From a bacterium (GTDB lineage: Bacteria; UBA6262; WVXT01): DNA of 21,511 nucleotides. Position 1 is the stretch's first letter. Each line of letters opens with the position of its first letter. The DNA lies in contig JBHIBS010000025.1 of NCBI GenBank assembly GCA_046759165.1, forward strand, positions 1 through 21,511, in the 5' to 3' direction. The notes under the pieces were generated by a model, which was not told the origin of the DNA, searched no databases, and worked only from the letters and a program-made list of their open reading frames with translations. Shown here in pieces: positions 1,917 through 21,511 of this stretch. The translations under genes were made by a program, and so were the position numbers.

Positions 1917-3479
1917 TTACTCTTCCTTCAATAATTTATACTCTATGCTGTCAACCAGTGCCTGCCAGCTGGCTTCAATAATATTTTCTGAAACTCCGAC
2001 TGTCCCCCACTCATCTCTCTTATCTCTCGATTCAATCAAAACTCTCACTTTGGCTGCTGTCCCCTGAGTGGCATCGATTACTCTAACCTTGAAATCTGTG
2101 AGACTCATCGACTTTAACTCTGGATAAAATCTTTCCAGAGCTTTCCTGAGGGCATTATCCAGGGCATTGACCGGTCCATCACCTTCACTAGCGGTGTGTT
2201 CTTCCTTTCCCCTCACCATAACTTTTATAATTGCTTCCGATCTCAGTCTCCCTCTTTTGTCCTTTTCCACAATTACGCGAAATCCCTCCAGATCAAAAAA
2301 AGTCTTGTGTCTACCAATTGTCTTCTTCATTAGAAGCTCAAAAGACCCCTCTGCACCTTCGAACTGGTAACCCTGACTCTCCATCTGTTTAACTCTCTGG
2401 AGGAGCTTCTTTACTTCCTTGCTTTTCTTTCGAAAGTCAATCTTGAACTCCTTTGCTTTCGACAGAATGCTAGACCTTCCCGAGAGCTCTGATACAAGAA
2501 CTCTACGTCGATTGCCCACTCTTTCGGGAGCCACGTGTTCATAGGTCTTTGTCTGTCTGGCCACGGCACTGACGTGGACTCCTCCTTTATGGGCAAATGC
2601 GGAATTCCCTACATATGGTTGGTTGTCCTGAGGAATCATATTTGCTATTTCACTTACGTATCGCGAAACCTCAGTCAAGCTCCCCAATCTCTTATCGGAG
2701 ATGCAATTGATTCCCAGTTTTAATTTTAAATTGGGAATAATCGAACAGAGGTTCGCATTGCCACACCTCTCACCGTAGCCATTAATTGTTCCCTGGACTA
2801 AAACGCAACCAGCCTTAATTGCAATGACCGAATTGGCTACAGCCATTTCTGAATCGTTGTGAGTGTGAATTCCCAATGGAATTCTTATCTTTCTCTTTAC
2901 TTCCTTAACTATACTTTCCACCTGATAGGGCACCATCCCTCCATTGGTGTCACAGAGGGTAATATTGTTCGCCCCGGCCTTAGCTGCTTGCCTTAATGTT
3001 TCCATTGCATAGAAATGGTCATCAATATATCCATCAAAAAAATGTTCCGCATCATAAATAACTTCCAGCCCTTTCCATTTAAGATATTTTACTGAGTCGA
3101 AAATCATCTTGAGGTTCTCGCCTAGAGTGGTGCGAAGAGCGTATTTTACATGGAGTCCCCAGGTCTTGCCGACAATACAGGAGGCTTCAGGCCTTACCTT
3201 CAGAATAGCATTAAGATTGGGGTCCCTGGATACTTCTTTTCCCTTATAGCGCGTGCTGGCAAAAGCTACTATTTTTGCATTCCTTAAACGCAGCTTCGTC
3301 ACCCTCTTAAAGAAAAGGATATCCTTGGGATTGGAACCAGGCCATCCACCTTCAATATAATGGATGCCAAAATCATCCAGCATCTTTGCTATCTTCAATT
3401 TATCTTCTACAGAGAAGGAGATCCCCTCACTCTGTGCTCCATCTCTTAAAGTAGTATCATATATCAACACTTTTTTCAT
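1917..3479 (-). CDS. cimA: Citramalate synthase (LeuA/CimA DRE-TIM family)
   Basis: [72 protein letters not shown]; directly downstream of lysC, a common lysC-cimA arrangement. Confidence 0.9.
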
Positions 3480-3490
3480 TTCTACCTCTC

Positions 3491-4726
3491 TTATCTCTCA
3501 CCTTTTCTGGCAGCTTTCGCCAAACCAAATTTTCTATGAATAGCCCTCACTGCCTTTTCCATATCTTTCTCTTTGATTACACAAGAAATCTTTATTTCCG
3601 AAGTAGAAATCATTTCAATATTTATGTTCTCCTCTGCAAGGGCAGAGAACATCTTAGAAGCTACACCCGAATGGCTTCTCATCCCCACCCCAACAATAGA
3701 CACCTTGGCTACCCCATCGCCATAGACAAGCCCCTTAGCACCTATTTCTCCCTTGACTTTATCCATTATATCTGAAGTTTTCTTTAGGTCTCCTCTATTA
3801 ACTGTAAAGGAGATATCATTTACCCCTCCTGCGGCAGAACTCTGAATAATCATGTCGACATTTACGTTCCCTGCCCCAAGCGCACCGAAAATTCTGGCGG
3901 CAATTCCGGGCCGGTCAGGAACATCAGTAATCGCCACTTTCACCAGATCCTTATCATAAGCTACTCCTCTTACCACTACCTCTTCCATCCTCGAAACTTC
4001 CTTCGTAATCACAGTCCCCTCCTCATCCTCGAAGCTGCTCCTGACATGAATATCCACATCAAATTTCTTAGCTACCTCAATAGACCTCGGGACCATCACC
4101 TGCGCACCGAGGCTGGCTAATTCCAGCATCTCCTCATAAGAAATTTTATCAATCTTTTTAGCATCAGGAACAATCCTGGGATCTGCACTATAGACGCCGG
4201 AAACGTCAGTATAAACTTCGCATTGGTCTGCTTTTAGCACTGAAGCTAAGGCTACGGCTGTCAAATCGGACCCACCCCTACCCAAAGTTGTAATATCCCT
4301 CTTGGCAGTTATCCCTTGAAAACCAGCAACAATAACAATTCTATCCTTACTTAACTCCCTTTCGATCTTTCTCGTATCTATCTTCTTGATCTTCGCACTA
4401 GTAAATGTCTCATCGGTAACAATCCCAACCTGTCCTCCGGTCAATGAGACCGCCTCCTCCCCAAGAGCATTGATTGCCATGGCCAAAAGAGCGATGGACA
4501 TCTGTTCGCCGGTAGCCAACAGCATATCCAATTCCCTATCAGTGGGAGAATGGCTAATCTGTTGAGCTGTTTCGACTAATTTATCAGTTGTATCGCCAGG
4601 CGCAGACACAACAATAACCACTTTATTTCCTCTCTTCTTTGTCTCAATTATGCGTCTGGCAACTCTCTTTATTCTTTCTGGTCCAGCAATAGATGTTCCA
4701 CCATACTTTTGTACAATGAGCGCCAT
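3491..4726 (-). CDS. lysC: Aspartate kinase (alpha/beta type, two ACT domains)
   Basis: [51 protein letters not shown] domains ([27 protein letters not shown]). Confidence 0.96.
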
Positions 4727-4745
4727 TCTCTCTCCACAAACAAGA

Positions 4746-4960
4746 TAACCCCTTCGGGGTTACTTCCATAGGGGCTTCGCCCCTCTGGCGTTCCAAATGT
4801 CCACCAGACATTTACTTCTCTGTCCTCCGGGGCGCTCACAGTCTCGCGCCCGTCGCTAACACGGAGCTCCTTATTCGTCGCTCCAGCGACCCCTTGAGGG
4901 AAACCAGATTGTTTCCCTCAAACTCCCTAATCCGCATAGGAATTTTTCAAATTCCTATGC
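4746..4960. repeat. Cluster of short perfect hairpins filling the thrB-lysC spacer (REP-like)
   Basis: TAACCCC-TTC-GGGGTTA 4746-4762; AGGGGC-TTC-GCCCCT 4770-4784; AAATGTC-CACCA-GACATTT 4795-4813; TTGAGGGAAAC-CAGATT-GTTTCCCTCAA 4894-4921; GCATAGGAATTT-TTC-AAATTCCTATGC 4934-4960; plus the element at 4827-4892. Confidence 0.85.
4827..4892 (-). repeat. ~66-bp structured repeat, family B, copy 1
   Basis: Aligns with 21402-21468 and shares CCGGGG, TCACnnTCTC, CCCGTCGC, CTCCTTATTCGTC and GCGACCC; stems differ by compensatory changes. Confidence 0.85.
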
Positions 4961-4966
4961 TTAAGA

Positions 4967-5914
4967 TTAAACTATTTTTGTTCCCTCTCTGTCTATACCC
5001 AGAACTAAATATTTGCTCTCTATTTTATGTTTGGCAAATGCTTCCCGCATAGCTTCTCCGACCCTTTCAGCGAGGGAAGGTGTGGAGGATACGGTAAACG
5101 CAAGTATACTCGGTCCCGCTCCACTCAGGCTCACGCCCAAAGCTCCTGCTCTCAGTGCTTCTTCGAAGACTACCTCCATTCCCTTAACCAGCCTCTTCCT
5201 ATATGGTTGATGGAGCTTGTCTTCCATTGCCATTCCCAAAAGCTCATACCTTCTCCTAATTAGAGCAGATAAAAGCAGGGCTACTCGAGAAGAAGTAAAC
5301 ACTGCCTGTTCAAATTTTATAGTCTTGGGCAAGATTTTCCTTGCCCGGCTCGTCATTATCTGGAAATTGGGAATACAAACCACACAGGAGAGATTCTCAG
5401 GGGGATTTAATTTCACAATTTCTATTTCTCGCCCTTTTCTTCCTTTCGAGGAAGAGATGCAACAGACTACTAATCCTCCCACCATTGCTGCAGATACATT
5501 ATCTGCATGACCTTCTATTTCCGCTGCTAAGTCCACTATCTCTTCTCTACTCAATCTCTCTCCACAAAGTCTGTTTGCACTTACCAATCCTCCAATCCTT
5601 GCTGCAGCGCTACTGCCCAGCCCGCTGGCAAGAGGGATTCTGTTCTTAAGTTTAAGGTGTAAGCTACAGGAGGCGAGGTGAAACTTGTCGAATACGAGCT
5701 TGGCTGCTCGATACACAATGTTTCTTCTGTCTCTGGGCAAATTATCTTCTCCTTCGCCCACAATATCAATCTGTAATTTTTTTCCACTTTTTCCCCTTCC
5801 CACTTCCATCTCTACAGTATTGTAAAGTCGAAGTGCTAATGCCAAGACATCGAATCCCGGTCCTAAATTGGCAGTAGTAGCCGGAATTCTGACTTTCACT
5901 CTTTTCATACCCAT
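4967..5914 (-). CDS. thrB: Homoserine kinase (GHMP family)
   Basis: IPATTANLGPGFDVL, IPLASGLGSSAAA, EGHADN, EDKLHQPYR, SLSGAGPS. Start may be ATG 5914 or 5908. Confidence 0.96.
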   Translation of the reverse strand: MGMKRVKVRIPATTANLGPGFDVLALALRLYNTVEMEVGRGKSGKKLQIDIVGEGEDNLPRDRRNIVYRAAKLVFDKFHLASCSLHLKLKNRIPLASGLGSSAAARIGGLVSANRLCGERLSREEIVDLAAEIEGHADNVSAAMVGGLVVCCISSSKGRKGREIEIVKLNPPENLSCVVCIPNFQIMTSRARKILPKTIKFEQAVFTSSRVALLLSALIRRRYELLGMAMEDKLHQPYRKRLVKGMEVVFEEALRAGALGVSLSGAGPSILAFTVSSTPSLAERVGEAMREAFAKHKIESKYLVLGIDREGTKIV

Positions 5915-11155: not shown

Positions 11156-11334
11156 TAAGAGATAGTTTTTGAAGAGGTCTTCGGATTTTAGCCAAAAAAC
11201 GAGGGCGGTTTATCTTCTTTTAAGCAAAAATTTGTTCGACTCCTGCTTTGCAAGGGAGTCCATTTTTGCGGCCTGCAAAGTCCGAAGTTTTTTCGCGTCA
11301 AAAAATTCCTCAGCAATGAACAAATTACCTCTTA
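11156..11334 (+). mobile_element. ~180-bp MITE/REPIN-like structured element, family A, copy 1 (more degenerate)
   Basis: Ends TAAGAGATAGTTT / AAATTACCTCTTA (11/13 inverted); colinear with 15281-15460 (shared GCCAAAAAACGAGGGCG, AAGCAAA, CCGAAGTTTTTT, AAAAAATTCCTCA). Confidence 0.7.
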
Positions 11335-15280: not shown

Positions 15281-15460
15281 TTAAAAGATAGTTTATGAGG
15301 AGCCCTCGGAATTTTTGGCCAAAAAACGAGGGCGACTCTTTCTCTTTCAAGCAAATCATTGTTTGACGAGCGAAGCGAGGAGTTTTGATTTGTGCCTTAC
15401 AGAGCCCGAAGTTTTTTGGTGTTAAAAAATTCCTCAAGCGACGAATAAACTATCTTTTAA
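15281..15460 (+). mobile_element. 180-bp MITE/REPIN-like structured element, family A, copy 2
   Basis: Perfect 16-bp terminal inverted repeat TTAAAAGATAGTTTAT (15281-15296) / ATAAACTATCTTTTAA (15445-15460); internal stems GGAATTTTT/AAAAATTCC, CCAAAAAAC/GTTTTTTGG, GGGC/GCCC, GCAAATCA/TGATTTGT; apical GCGAAGC. Confidence 0.78.
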
Positions 15461-20249: not shown

Positions 20250-21371
20250 TCAAATATTGGTCTGATATACCCTGTACTTCTTGTATAATTTACCACCCAT
20301 CATTTCAGCTGCGCGCTGGGTTAAAATGTTGTCTTCCAGCACCCATGAGGACTCACAATATTTATAACCAACCCTCTGGGAACCTTTCAATCCTTCCAAC
20401 ATAAGGAGGGTCTCAATTCCTCTCTTCTGATACTCTTTTACCACCCCCAGAATCGGTAAACGCTGAGTAGTAATCCTCTTCCTGTACCATAGGAATTTCA
20501 GAAGAGTCCAGGGATTTAACCTCCCGTTCATCCTTTTCGTAACCTCGTTATAGTTGGGAACGGTAATTAACATTGCTACGGGCTTACTGTCTGCCTCAGC
20601 AATGGGAATTGTCCCGGGCACCAGAAAAGGCTTTAGCTTCATAGCTTCGGTGTAGAACTCTTCCTTTGTCCAGGGAACGAATCCCCAGTTTTTCTCCCAG
20701 GCATTATTATAGATTCTACGGACATTCTCCACTTCATTTTTCCAGTCTTTTAGATTGGCCTGTCGAATCTTAATGCCGGGACTTCTCTCCGTTATTTTCT
20801 CAGCTGCTTTTTCCAATTTTTCTAAGGGGCACTTCTCTACCTCTATCAAATAGGCAAAGAAATCCATCTCTTTAACTAAACCATATCTTTCCATAAAATC
20901 GATATAGTATTTTGGATTGTAGGTCATCAAAATGTAAGGGCTTGAGTCAAATCCTTCTAAAAGAACACCGACTTCGTCGTTGGTAGAAGGGTTCATCGGA
21001 CCGGCCATCTTTTCCATATTTTTCCCTTTTAGCCATTCCTTTACCCTGTTAAGCAAATTTTCGGCAATTGTGTAATCTTCCAAGGACTCGAAGAACCCAA
21101 AAAATCCCATCTTTTCATTGTGAAAATTTATGTAGTTATGGTCAATTATGGCGGAAATCCTCCCCACCAATTTGCCATTTCTTCCGGCAACGAAAAGCTC
21201 CTTTTCCGCATGTTGCCAGAAAGGGTTCTTTTCACTTAGAATAAGTTTTACATCCCTAATTAATGGTGGCACCCAGTAAGGGTCATTTTGATAAACCTTC
21301 CAAGGGAATTTTATAAAAGCCATCAACTCCTTCTTAGTTCTTACTTGTTTAATCTCAATATCTCCTGCCAT
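20250..21371 (-). CDS. YghO-like double-GNAT N-acyltransferase (candidate bacterial ceramide synthase)
   Basis: FIKFPWKVY..DPYWVPPL, VGRISAI, GFFGFFES, GPMNPSTN, YNPKYY, YNNAWEKNWGFVP, LGVVKEYQKRGI, ESSWVLEDN, YKKYRVY; RBS AAAGGAGGT. Confidence 0.8.
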   Translation of the reverse strand: MAGDIEIKQVRTKKELMAFIKFPWKVYQNDPYWVPPLIRDVKLILSEKNPFWQHAEKELFVAGRNGKLVGRISAIIDHNYINFHNEKMGFFGFFESLEDYTIAENLLNRVKEWLKGKNMEKMAGPMNPSTNDEVGVLLEGFDSSPYILMTYNPKYYIDFMERYGLVKEMDFFAYLIEVEKCPLEKLEKAAEKITERSPGIKIRQANLKDWKNEVENVRRIYNNAWEKNWGFVPWTKEEFYTEAMKLKPFLVPGTIPIAEADSKPVAMLITVPNYNEVTKRMNGRLNPWTLLKFLWYRKRITTQRLPILGVVKEYQKRGIETLLMLEGLKGSQRVGYKYCESSWVLEDNILTQRAAEMMGGKLYKKYRVYQTNI

Positions 21372-21379
21372 GTCTACCT

Positions 21380-21511
21380 CCTTTCGCTTCGCTCAATCCG
21401 GCCGGGGTTCTCACCATCTCGAACCCGTCGCCAGACTTGTCGCTCCTTATTCGTCCCGACGGCGACCCTTTCGCTTCGCTCAATCCGGCCGGGGTTCTCA
21501 CCATCTCGAAC
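21380..21511 (-). repeat. Direct repeat with 87-bp period containing the family B element, truncated by the window end
   Basis: 21380-21424 is identical to 21467-21511 (45 bp); 21402-21468 is homologous to 4827-4892. Confidence 0.88.

Follow-up and report, generated by a model that had tools for sequence, protein, structure and literature searches.

The stretch of DNA analysed here (the window, 21,511 nucleotides) carries twice a short, structured, uncharacterised element of about 66 nucleotides. Its presence raises the question of whether such an element is a piece of mobile DNA or an RNA motif, and to which kind of repeat it belongs. A preliminary description, made from the letters alone, had left both readings standing: a secondary structure under selection whose recognition loops are conserved, which would either be mobile or act as a non-coding RNA and which it could match to no known family.

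Two copies and their surroundings

The two copies described earlier, at 4827-4892 and 21402-21468, were both recovered at these positions, and their stems hold as drawn. P1 pairs GGGCGC with GCGCCC in copy 1 and GGGTTC with GAACCC in copy 2; P2 pairs GTCGCT with AGCGAC and GTCGCC with GGCGAC, respectively; and P3 is formed by GGAGC/GCTCC in copy 1 and by GTCG/CGAC, with one extra mismatch, in copy 2. The loops are indeed conserved and can close with G.A pairs only on the minus strand, where they read GAG-NNGG-TGA and GAC-GAATAA-GGA. Both copies also lie upstream of, and in sense to, unrelated genes, namely an aspartokinase gene (AA_kinase and ACT domains) and a gene with a weak GNAT match. The features of the two loci, with scores against our covariance model (CM R1), are as follows.

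4826..4893, minus strand: element copy 1, core and GG flanks (CM R1 91.1 bits)
4885-4890, minus strand: copy 1, P2 5′ arm (6-bp helix)
4863-4884, minus strand: copy 1, P3 hairpin, 5 bp, loop GAC-GAATAA-GGA, enclosed by P2
4858-4862, minus strand: copy 1, junction, a 5-nt bulge
4852-4857, minus strand: copy 1, P2 3′ arm
4830-4851, minus strand: copy 1, P1 hairpin, 6 bp, loop GAG-ACTG-TGA
4747..4813, minus strand: small hairpin modules between copy 1 and lysC (4795-4813, 4771-4783 and 4747-4761), a mosaic spacer
4895..4960, minus strand: two hairpin modules upstream of copy 1 (4895-4920 and 4934-4960)
3491..4726, minus strand: lysC-type aspartokinase gene 3′ of copy 1 (AA_kinase 181.5 bits, ACT domains)
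4967..5914, minus strand: GHMP-kinase gene (homoserine-kinase-like) upstream of copy 1
21402..21468, minus strand: element copy 2, of another stem subfamily (CM R1 78.6 bits)
21405-21426, minus strand: copy 2, P1
21427-21432 and 21461-21466, minus strand: copy 2, P2 arms
21439-21460, minus strand: copy 2, P3, with one mismatch
21372..21403, minus strand: copy 2, 3′ tail module, containing GCGAAGC and ending in AAAGGAGG
21467..21511, minus strand: next array unit (tail and start of P1), cut by the contig end; a 100% repeat of 21380-21424
20250..21371, minus strand: gene of 373 aa with a weak match to GNAT, immediately 3′ of copy 2 and its tail

The minus strand of the window is the sense strand for all genes neighbouring the copies. 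Copy 2 opens a head-to-tail array with a period of 87 that runs past the contig end, and such arrays also terminate other contigs of the same genome. Its tail (24 nt) closes with AAAGGAGG, 7 bases 5′ of the start codon of the GNAT-type gene (21369-21371); AAAGGAGG is the Shine-Dalgarno sequence of that gene, and this tail also ends units at other loci. Around copy 1, the 240-nt lysC leader (4727-4966) consists entirely of repeat modules, and those at 4747..4813 vary in presence and absence among relatives. The hairpin at 4934-4960 follows closely on the thrB-like gene; in relatives (L061, L062 and L065) its place and the length of its loop are unchanged, but its stem is exchanged wholesale between them, being of the AGGAAT type in some and of the CCCGAT type in others; the CCCGAT stem is identical to the stem in one P3 subfamily of the element. 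The window also holds a second repeat family of ~157 nt (11156-11312 and 15282-15436; 75-81% identity in three blocks), which occupies two spacers between minus-strand genes and pieces of which recur elsewhere in the genome.

The view that the element matches no known family was borne out by the comparison with Rfam. Rfam 15 gave no match at gathering score in the whole window, and a search of 4700-5000 yielded just two chance-level matches elsewhere in that stretch (E 4 and 5.9); no lysine riboswitch or other Rfam family was found upstream of lysC (4727-4966), and four loci of other phyla gave no match at E ≤ 1. Literature searches by loop sequence and by topic found no description of the fold. 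The accessible part of a 2026 preprint catalogue of noncoding clusters does not name the element, and the motif may be in its supplements. Integron attC sites and CRISPR arrays were dropped by eye: the element has no R boxes and no spacers, and its neighbours are housekeeping genes.

Copies, covariation and distribution

Iterated nhmmer searches of the genome that the window comes from (the source genome; 1.885 Mb in a 165-contig draft) returned 44 copies of the element at E < 1e-3, eight of which are cut by, or lie too near, contig ends; CM R1 retrieved 35. The copies form at least five stem subfamilies, plus one with a junction insertion of 15-21 nt, and chimeric copies exchange P2/P3 and P1 halves. 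One copy, on contig C39 (~3920-4023), lies directly 5′ of a stretch that resembles the start of an RNase P RNA gene (GAGAGGAAAGTCCG).

The phylum was sampled with 12 genomes: the source genome, eight further members of its family, two genomes of a sister family and one of a third family. All eight sister genomes of the family carry the element, with 4-41 CM R1 matches each, and CM R1 found none in the two sister-family genomes or in the third-family genome. Among 29 genomes of other phyla, only one (G021) was matched by CM R1, by two weaker copies of the same architecture that lie beside partial tRNA-Pro copies.

An exact-loop pattern, in which a gap of variable length separates the two loops, was searched for in a species-representative collection and matched at least 113 stretches, in MAGs of many phyla. 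By record title, about 45 of the 80 matches listed belong to Nitrospira or Nitrospirota, 13 to Deltaproteobacteria, Syntrophaceae or Thermodesulfobacteriota, 4 to Elusimicrobia or Endomicrobia, 3 to Planctomycetes, 3 to Omnitrophota, 1 to Firestonebacteria and 1 to Alphaproteobacteria; 4 are unclassified, and 11 are titled 'Clostridia' and carry the stem subfamilies and tails of the source genome's family. CM R1 found 74 copies in 69 of these 80 listed loci, a set from which the 11 loci with the family's own subfamilies were excluded. Five genomes of other phyla held 1, 14, 7, 9 and 4 copies. The flanks of the element vary between phyla and the core is kept: Nitrospirota copies have long conserved flanks in common, and an alphaproteobacterial MAG holds a tandem array of the core only. 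In many Nitrospirota and Deltaproteobacteria-type copies, the next motif after the element is TTTTTCAGCAGCCTG, which is related to GCCTGTTGAAAAAC. Viral contigs gave no match to the exact-loop pattern, and a phage origin was dropped on that ground.

A selected structure with conserved loops had been proposed from two copies, and it is strongly supported by covariation in the source genome as well as across phyla, with loops that are essentially fixed. In the 22 full copies of the source genome, 82% of cells are paired, against 68.9 ± 1.1 in shuffles, and 9 of the 23 pairs vary on both sides; the covariation score was 0.331 versus 0.104 for shuffled alignments, with none of 500 shuffles as high, and out-of-register control pairings reached at most 0.096. 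The cross-phylum alignment (71 distinct rows from the matches listed) was fitted to CM R1, which favours pairing; it has 81% of cells paired, against 61.7 ± 0.6 in shuffles, and 15 of the 23 pairs vary on both sides, a number that none of 500 shuffles reached. All six P2 pairs covary in this alignment of the matches listed, and P2 is 98.8% paired. Because the cross-phylum sample was picked by exact loops, loop invariance within it is partly built in; judged from copies outside the exact-loop pattern, the GAATAA loop is the hardest core of the element.

The non-canonical pairs distinguish the two strands. One stem pair is G.U in 21 of the 22 copies of the source genome and in all 71 distinct cross-phylum rows. 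Four positions are G.A or A.G, with G-C and A-U instead in two copies of the source genome, and the tandem G.A pairs turn into Watson-Crick pairs in variants that include copies outside the exact pattern. In the Watson-Crick stems of three alignments, G.T was counted 16 times versus 6 for A.C. The fold is therefore selected on one strand, since the other strand would give A.C and pyrimidine mismatches. Energy folding produced identical helices on both strands and did not separate them, and copy 2 was not significant by this measure. The element is real and structurally constrained.

Insertion sites and orientation to genes

Four orthologous spacers were compared across nine genomes of the family, and at all four the element is present in some relatives and absent from others. 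The thrB-lysC spacer, the site of copy 1, is empty in three of the nine genomes, where it measures only 15-21 nt; one genome has two small hairpins at this place, two have a different small hairpin bearing a near-copy of the P3 loop, and three have the element, in one case with the P3 of another subfamily. At locus C2:49590, a 120-nt insert made of the core and two other modules is found in one of the nine genomes, the source genome itself, and lies between the stop codon and the ribosome-binding site of the next gene. The spacer on contig C51 is empty in G007 and reads AAGGAGG, spacer, ATG; in G005 and G000, one unit of core and tail stands exactly 3′ of GGAGG and ends in its own AAGGAGG, and other relatives have GTAG-type hairpins or arrays. 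Near position 22986 of contig C2, the site is empty in G001 and G006 and holds a single unit in G000, and G007 carries three, namely a P3-only mini unit and two full units; the units each end in GCGAAAGGAGG, and the spacer and ATG that follow them are unchanged. These spacers, filled in some relatives and empty in others, are in keeping with the earlier reading as a mobile element or non-coding RNA motif, and show that the element is mobile.

In two relatives (G004 and G008; loci L083 and L087), the C51-orthologous spacer holds small GTAG-tagged hairpins of the classical REP type. The element and GTAG hairpins occupy one spacer in different relatives, and the two kinds of repeat therefore share sites. 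In the metagenome, contig depth over 4818-4891 is 20-40x that of the flanks (DNA runs X2, X4, X5 and X6 summed), a copy-number spike. In two of these four runs the spacer takes a variant form, with 31 other letters in place of 91 nt, as in G003 and G008.

Clean insertion directly behind a Shine-Dalgarno GGAGG is seen at two of the four spacers (C51 and C2 near 22986). Elsewhere in the source genome, a nested unit follows a GGAGG that belongs to a different module; a MAG labelled Thermodesulfobacteriota has a bare core directly 3′ of GGAGG, where it splits a half copy of tRNA-Pro; and in an Omnitrophota-labelled MAG, the core lies 3′ of GAGG at codon seven or eight of a small gene, with ~29 nt (the ribosome-site spacer and first codons) repeated behind it, such that the gene stays whole. 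Insertion directly 3′ of GGAGG or RGG is thus seen at five sites, and the ~29-nt duplication at the one that is an ORF start. The direct GG or AAGGAGG on both sides of the element could be a duplication or a part of the unit. The base at flank −1 is G in all 22 copies of the source genome and in 60 of 71 from other phyla, and that at −2 in 21 of 22 and 56 of 71 (among the matches listed); flanks +2 and +3 are G in 20 and 21 of the 22 copies of the source genome.

Several copies follow a partial tRNA gene of the Glu, Gly or Pro type (contigs C27, 20136-20318, C85 and C29 of the source genome, and G021, L046 1380-1760). At those sites an intact copy of each tRNA stands shortly downstream, and at two of them a downstream stretch is complementary to the tRNA anticodon arm.

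In the source genome, 28 copies have a downstream gene, which lies in sense in 26 cases; on the upstream side this holds for 37 of 39. Where the orientation departs from this, the copy is degenerate, its context is unclear or it lies in a divergent promoter region, with one instance of each. For relatives the downstream figure is 19 of 19. Outside the family, where gene calls were rough (GC3-aware, and crude in high-GC loci), both neighbours are sense for 16 and both antisense for 17 of the 71 copies that lie outside called ORFs among the matches listed.

The sense orientation within the family makes a function in RNA a serious rival to mobility as the cause of conservation, because copies in the family are co-transcribed in sense (26/28 and 19/19 for downstream genes) and because the purine loops hold the Shine-Dalgarno-like sequences AAGGAG and GGTGA, kept across phyla. 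The element would then act in cis in 5′ UTRs and intercistronic spacers, as a binding module for the 30S subunit or for a conserved protein. It would stabilise or process the mRNA next to it, or tune its translation, and its dispersal would be a secondary effect. The G.U and tandem G.A pairs lie on the transcribed strand, copies lie between a stop codon and the next Shine-Dalgarno sequence, some Deltaproteobacteria-type copies have a terminator-like hairpin and T-run directly 3′ of the core, and the loops give TAA and TGA stops in one reading frame, all of which favour such a role. However, the AAGGAG and GGTGA bases are engaged in non-canonical pairs and are unexposed, no link to a gene family was seen, orthologous spacers of close relatives do without the element and show no visible compensation, and copies occur inside an ORF start. 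The mixed orientation outside the family argues against an obligate mRNA-sense function and, with the easy gain and loss of copies and their occurrence in tRNA remnants, against RNA function as the primary cause of conservation. The strict sense orientation within the family would follow if copies land behind ribosome-binding sites, since such sites have an orientation of their own, and is thus not proof of an RNA role; insertion after GGAGG of a unit that ends in AAGGAGG accounts for the sense orientation and for the head-to-tail arrays alike. We therefore regard a primary role in RNA as possible but fairly improbable.

Place among known repeats and mode of spread

REP sequences are single palindromes of 20-40 bp with an unpaired GTAG or CGTC end tag, according to the accessible part of Di Nocera et al. 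(2013; PMC3733652), and BIMEs are REP clusters of alternating orientation with linker motifs, according to the accessible parts of PMC3733652 and PMC3184786. As these repeats are described in that part of PMC3733652, the element resembles them: it is small, GC-rich, hairpin-forming and extragenic, has tens of copies per genome, forms mosaic clusters, carries a short motif found across several phyla and is often co-transcribed with its neighbours. It differs from REPs in consisting of two unlike hairpins, one of them nested, over ~66 nt instead of one palindrome, in lacking GTAG and having CGTC only within the P3 loop on the opposite strand, in having no RAYT gene flanked by the repeat, in its loops fixed at 10-12 nt and in its insertion behind GGAGG. 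Its clusters are mosaic with linkers, as in BIMEs, but the units stand head-to-tail; one inverted copy pair occurs in an Endomicrobia-labelled locus among the matches listed.

MIRUs measure 40-100 bp and have ~40-50 copies (Supply et al. 1997, as quoted in the accessible part of PMC3184786). They form a mycobacterial sequence family with small reading frames that run across the stop and start of adjacent genes. The element shares with MIRUs its size of 40-100 bp, its location within operons, its orientation along transcription and its tandem copies. As MIRUs are described in that part of PMC3184786, it further resembles them in lying between co-transcribed operon genes, in having both occupied and unoccupied sites, with short direct repeats, and in ends that touch the translation signals of neighbouring genes. 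By the same partial description it is set apart from them by its occurrence in another taxon and by its definition through a covarying two-hairpin fold with fixed loops common to several phyla. Neisseria REP2 and Borrelia IR-A/IR-B likewise have two stem-loops followed by a ribosome-binding site, upstream of unrelated genes, but they carry a promoter and an ATG and are lineage-restricted in the accessible account (PMC3184786), whereas the start codon behind the element is that of the host gene.

MITEs have terminal inverted repeats and a target-site duplication; the element has no such inverted repeats, and has direct GG or AAGGAGG on both sides. Elements of the IS200/IS605 type have strand-specific hairpins near both ends, insert in one orientation 3′ of a short motif and are without inverted terminal repeats. 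In its hairpins and in lacking such repeats the element resembles them and their gene-less derivatives, and it may also share their mode of insertion; unlike them, it leaves no room for a guide sequence between the putative cleavage point and the first hairpin, and no Y1 transposase with matching ends was found in the source genome or its relatives. The element thus works like REP/BIME, MIRU and Neisseria REP2-type repeats, and lacks features of tagged REPs, BIMEs and classical MITEs. What sets it apart within the small structured intergenic mobile repeats is that its loops are fixed across phyla and that it inserts behind ribosome-binding sites.

The preliminary description had suggested a search for RAYT, IS200-like or small GIY-YIG genes flanked by the motif. 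None was found: neither of the two RAYT-like genes of the source genome and none of 14 Y1 loci is so flanked, and the sole GIY-YIG match in the genome sits in a 446-aa open frame. The two RAYT-like genes, on contigs C4 (49789-50478) and C40, reach the NCBIfam model REP_Tyr_transpos (85.8 and 80.1 bits, cut-off 80). Inverted copies of a different repeat stand on either side of one of them, the other has no repeat at its flanks, and no element copy was found beside either. Y1 transposase genes occur in six of the eight sister genomes and also in two of the three genomes of the phylum that lack the element, and no Y1 or RAYT-like genes were seen in the carriers G006 (24 copies, 92% complete) and G007 (10 copies, 83% complete). 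CM R1 placed the element within 1.5 kb of 1 of the 14 Y1 loci, where the copy precedes a phosphoglycerate mutase gene, and no copy was found at the ends of IS200-type genes in relatives. With neither adjacency nor a phyletic pattern, the RAYT link was rejected. The element could otherwise have been an ordinary REP or BIME mobilised by the RAYT-type tyrosine transposases of the genome, for which the two genes above the cut-off, the BIME-like mosaics of small GC-rich hairpins in the spacers and the GTAG-tagged hairpins in relatives would speak. We consider this very unlikely: the ends of the element carry no GTAG or CGTC tag, it is neither a single 20-40 bp palindrome nor found in alternating orientation (as such repeats are described in the accessible parts of PMC3733652 and PMC3184786), and RAYT genes, flanked by a different repeat or by none, show no phyletic link or adjacency to it.

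An all-against-all comparison of 1941 ORFs in the 80 loci listed revealed no recurrent neighbour protein family; it returned only ORFs running through the repeat, and syntenic Nitrospira genes in five loci. A 130-aa ORF inside an inverted copy pair (L143) was set aside, as its sequence suggests a hydrophobic membrane protein and not a transposase. A separate motif, consisting of an A-run, GGGGTCAGAGTCA and a T-run, has ~19-24 copies in the source genome (for example on C6, C32, C85 and C130); inverted copies at 49732 and 50481 of contig C4 flank one RAYT-like gene, and another copy adjoins a truncated element copy on contig C76.

Least probable of all is that the core only rides in, or forms a structural part of, larger transposon derivatives specific to a lineage (TIR-bounded MITEs or tRNA-gene island ends) and not itself an insertion unit, as might be read from a Syntrophaceae-labelled locus in which inverted GCCTGTTGAAAAAC-type motifs bound ~370 nt of hairpins including the element (L116, ~2680-3060), from the long flanks common to Nitrospirota copies and from the several copies that adjoin partial tRNA genes, since the core is kept where flanks differ between phyla, splits a tRNA-Pro half copy as a bare unit, forms a core-only array in the alphaproteobacterial MAG and exchanges its P2/P3 and P1 halves in chimeras.

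On balance, the element is probably a widespread non-coding, non-autonomous and strand-specific insertion module of the REP/MIRU kind, ~62-66 nt long, with a putative mobilising enzyme. Its copy number, covariation, strand-specific pairs, presence and absence, insertion point, orientation and distribution are observed. On the minus strand of the window, the module folds into a nested P2/P3 hairpin, with a GAATAA hexaloop on a C-G pair and tandem G.A pairs, and an adjacent P1 hairpin whose cap, GAG-NNGG-TGA, consists of tandem G.A pairs and a G.U pair. The stems are free to vary as long as they remain paired, and the loops and the flanking RGG and MGG bases are kept, as features that a putative trans-acting DNA-processing enzyme may recognise on the folded single strand. 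This enzyme would insert the module one way round, immediately 3′ of RGG, mostly a Shine-Dalgarno GGAGG. Both the action on single-stranded DNA and the existence and nature of the enzyme are what we infer, as is the choice of target over selective retention. In the lineage of the source genome, the core would move with short tail modules ending in AAGGAGG, and each insertion would rebuild the ribosome-binding site, leave the downstream gene translatable and offer a new target; a regenerated GGAGG target would thereby give rise to head-to-tail arrays and mosaic spacers.

GCGAAGC forms an unusually stable DNA mini-hairpin, and its presence in the tail would fit a single-stranded DNA stage. Against the insertion-module reading, the searches for a mobilising enzyme yielded none, Y1 and RAYT-like genes do not follow the distribution of the element, terminal inverted repeats are absent, the duplicated AAGGAGG could be part of the repeat unit and not of the target, the placement at ribosome sites may reflect surviving insertions and not landing sites, and the sense orientation in the family and the hairpin and T-run in some Deltaproteobacteria-type copies would also fit an RNA role. 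Rather doubtful, and going further than the insertion module as proposed, is the idea of a third, uncatalogued super-family of tagged repeats in at least six phyla, whose purine loops would be the handle of a putative conserved single-stranded DNA (or RNA-templated) insertion machinery that homes to GGAGG and rebuilds it; on another version of this idea, the fold itself would be a small catalytic or ribosome-binding RNA spreading as selfish DNA.

Small intergenic repeats are a known class, and to our knowledge nearly all described families are confined to a single lineage or have only a four-base tag in common. A 66-nt fold with two fixed loops of 10-12 bases across phyla, and with all stems compensating, points to an unnamed conserved partner. 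Arrays of the element break assemblies, as seen from the many copies at the ends of contigs. In gene calling they give rise to spurious ORFs, and they could pass for regulatory RNAs. An enzyme that inserts DNA beside GGAGG in a fixed orientation would be of interest as a tool. Within its own family, the element, placed exactly behind ribosome-binding sites that it restores, points to selfish DNA that colonises operons harmlessly, and it shows how 5′ UTRs and intercistronic spacers are built.
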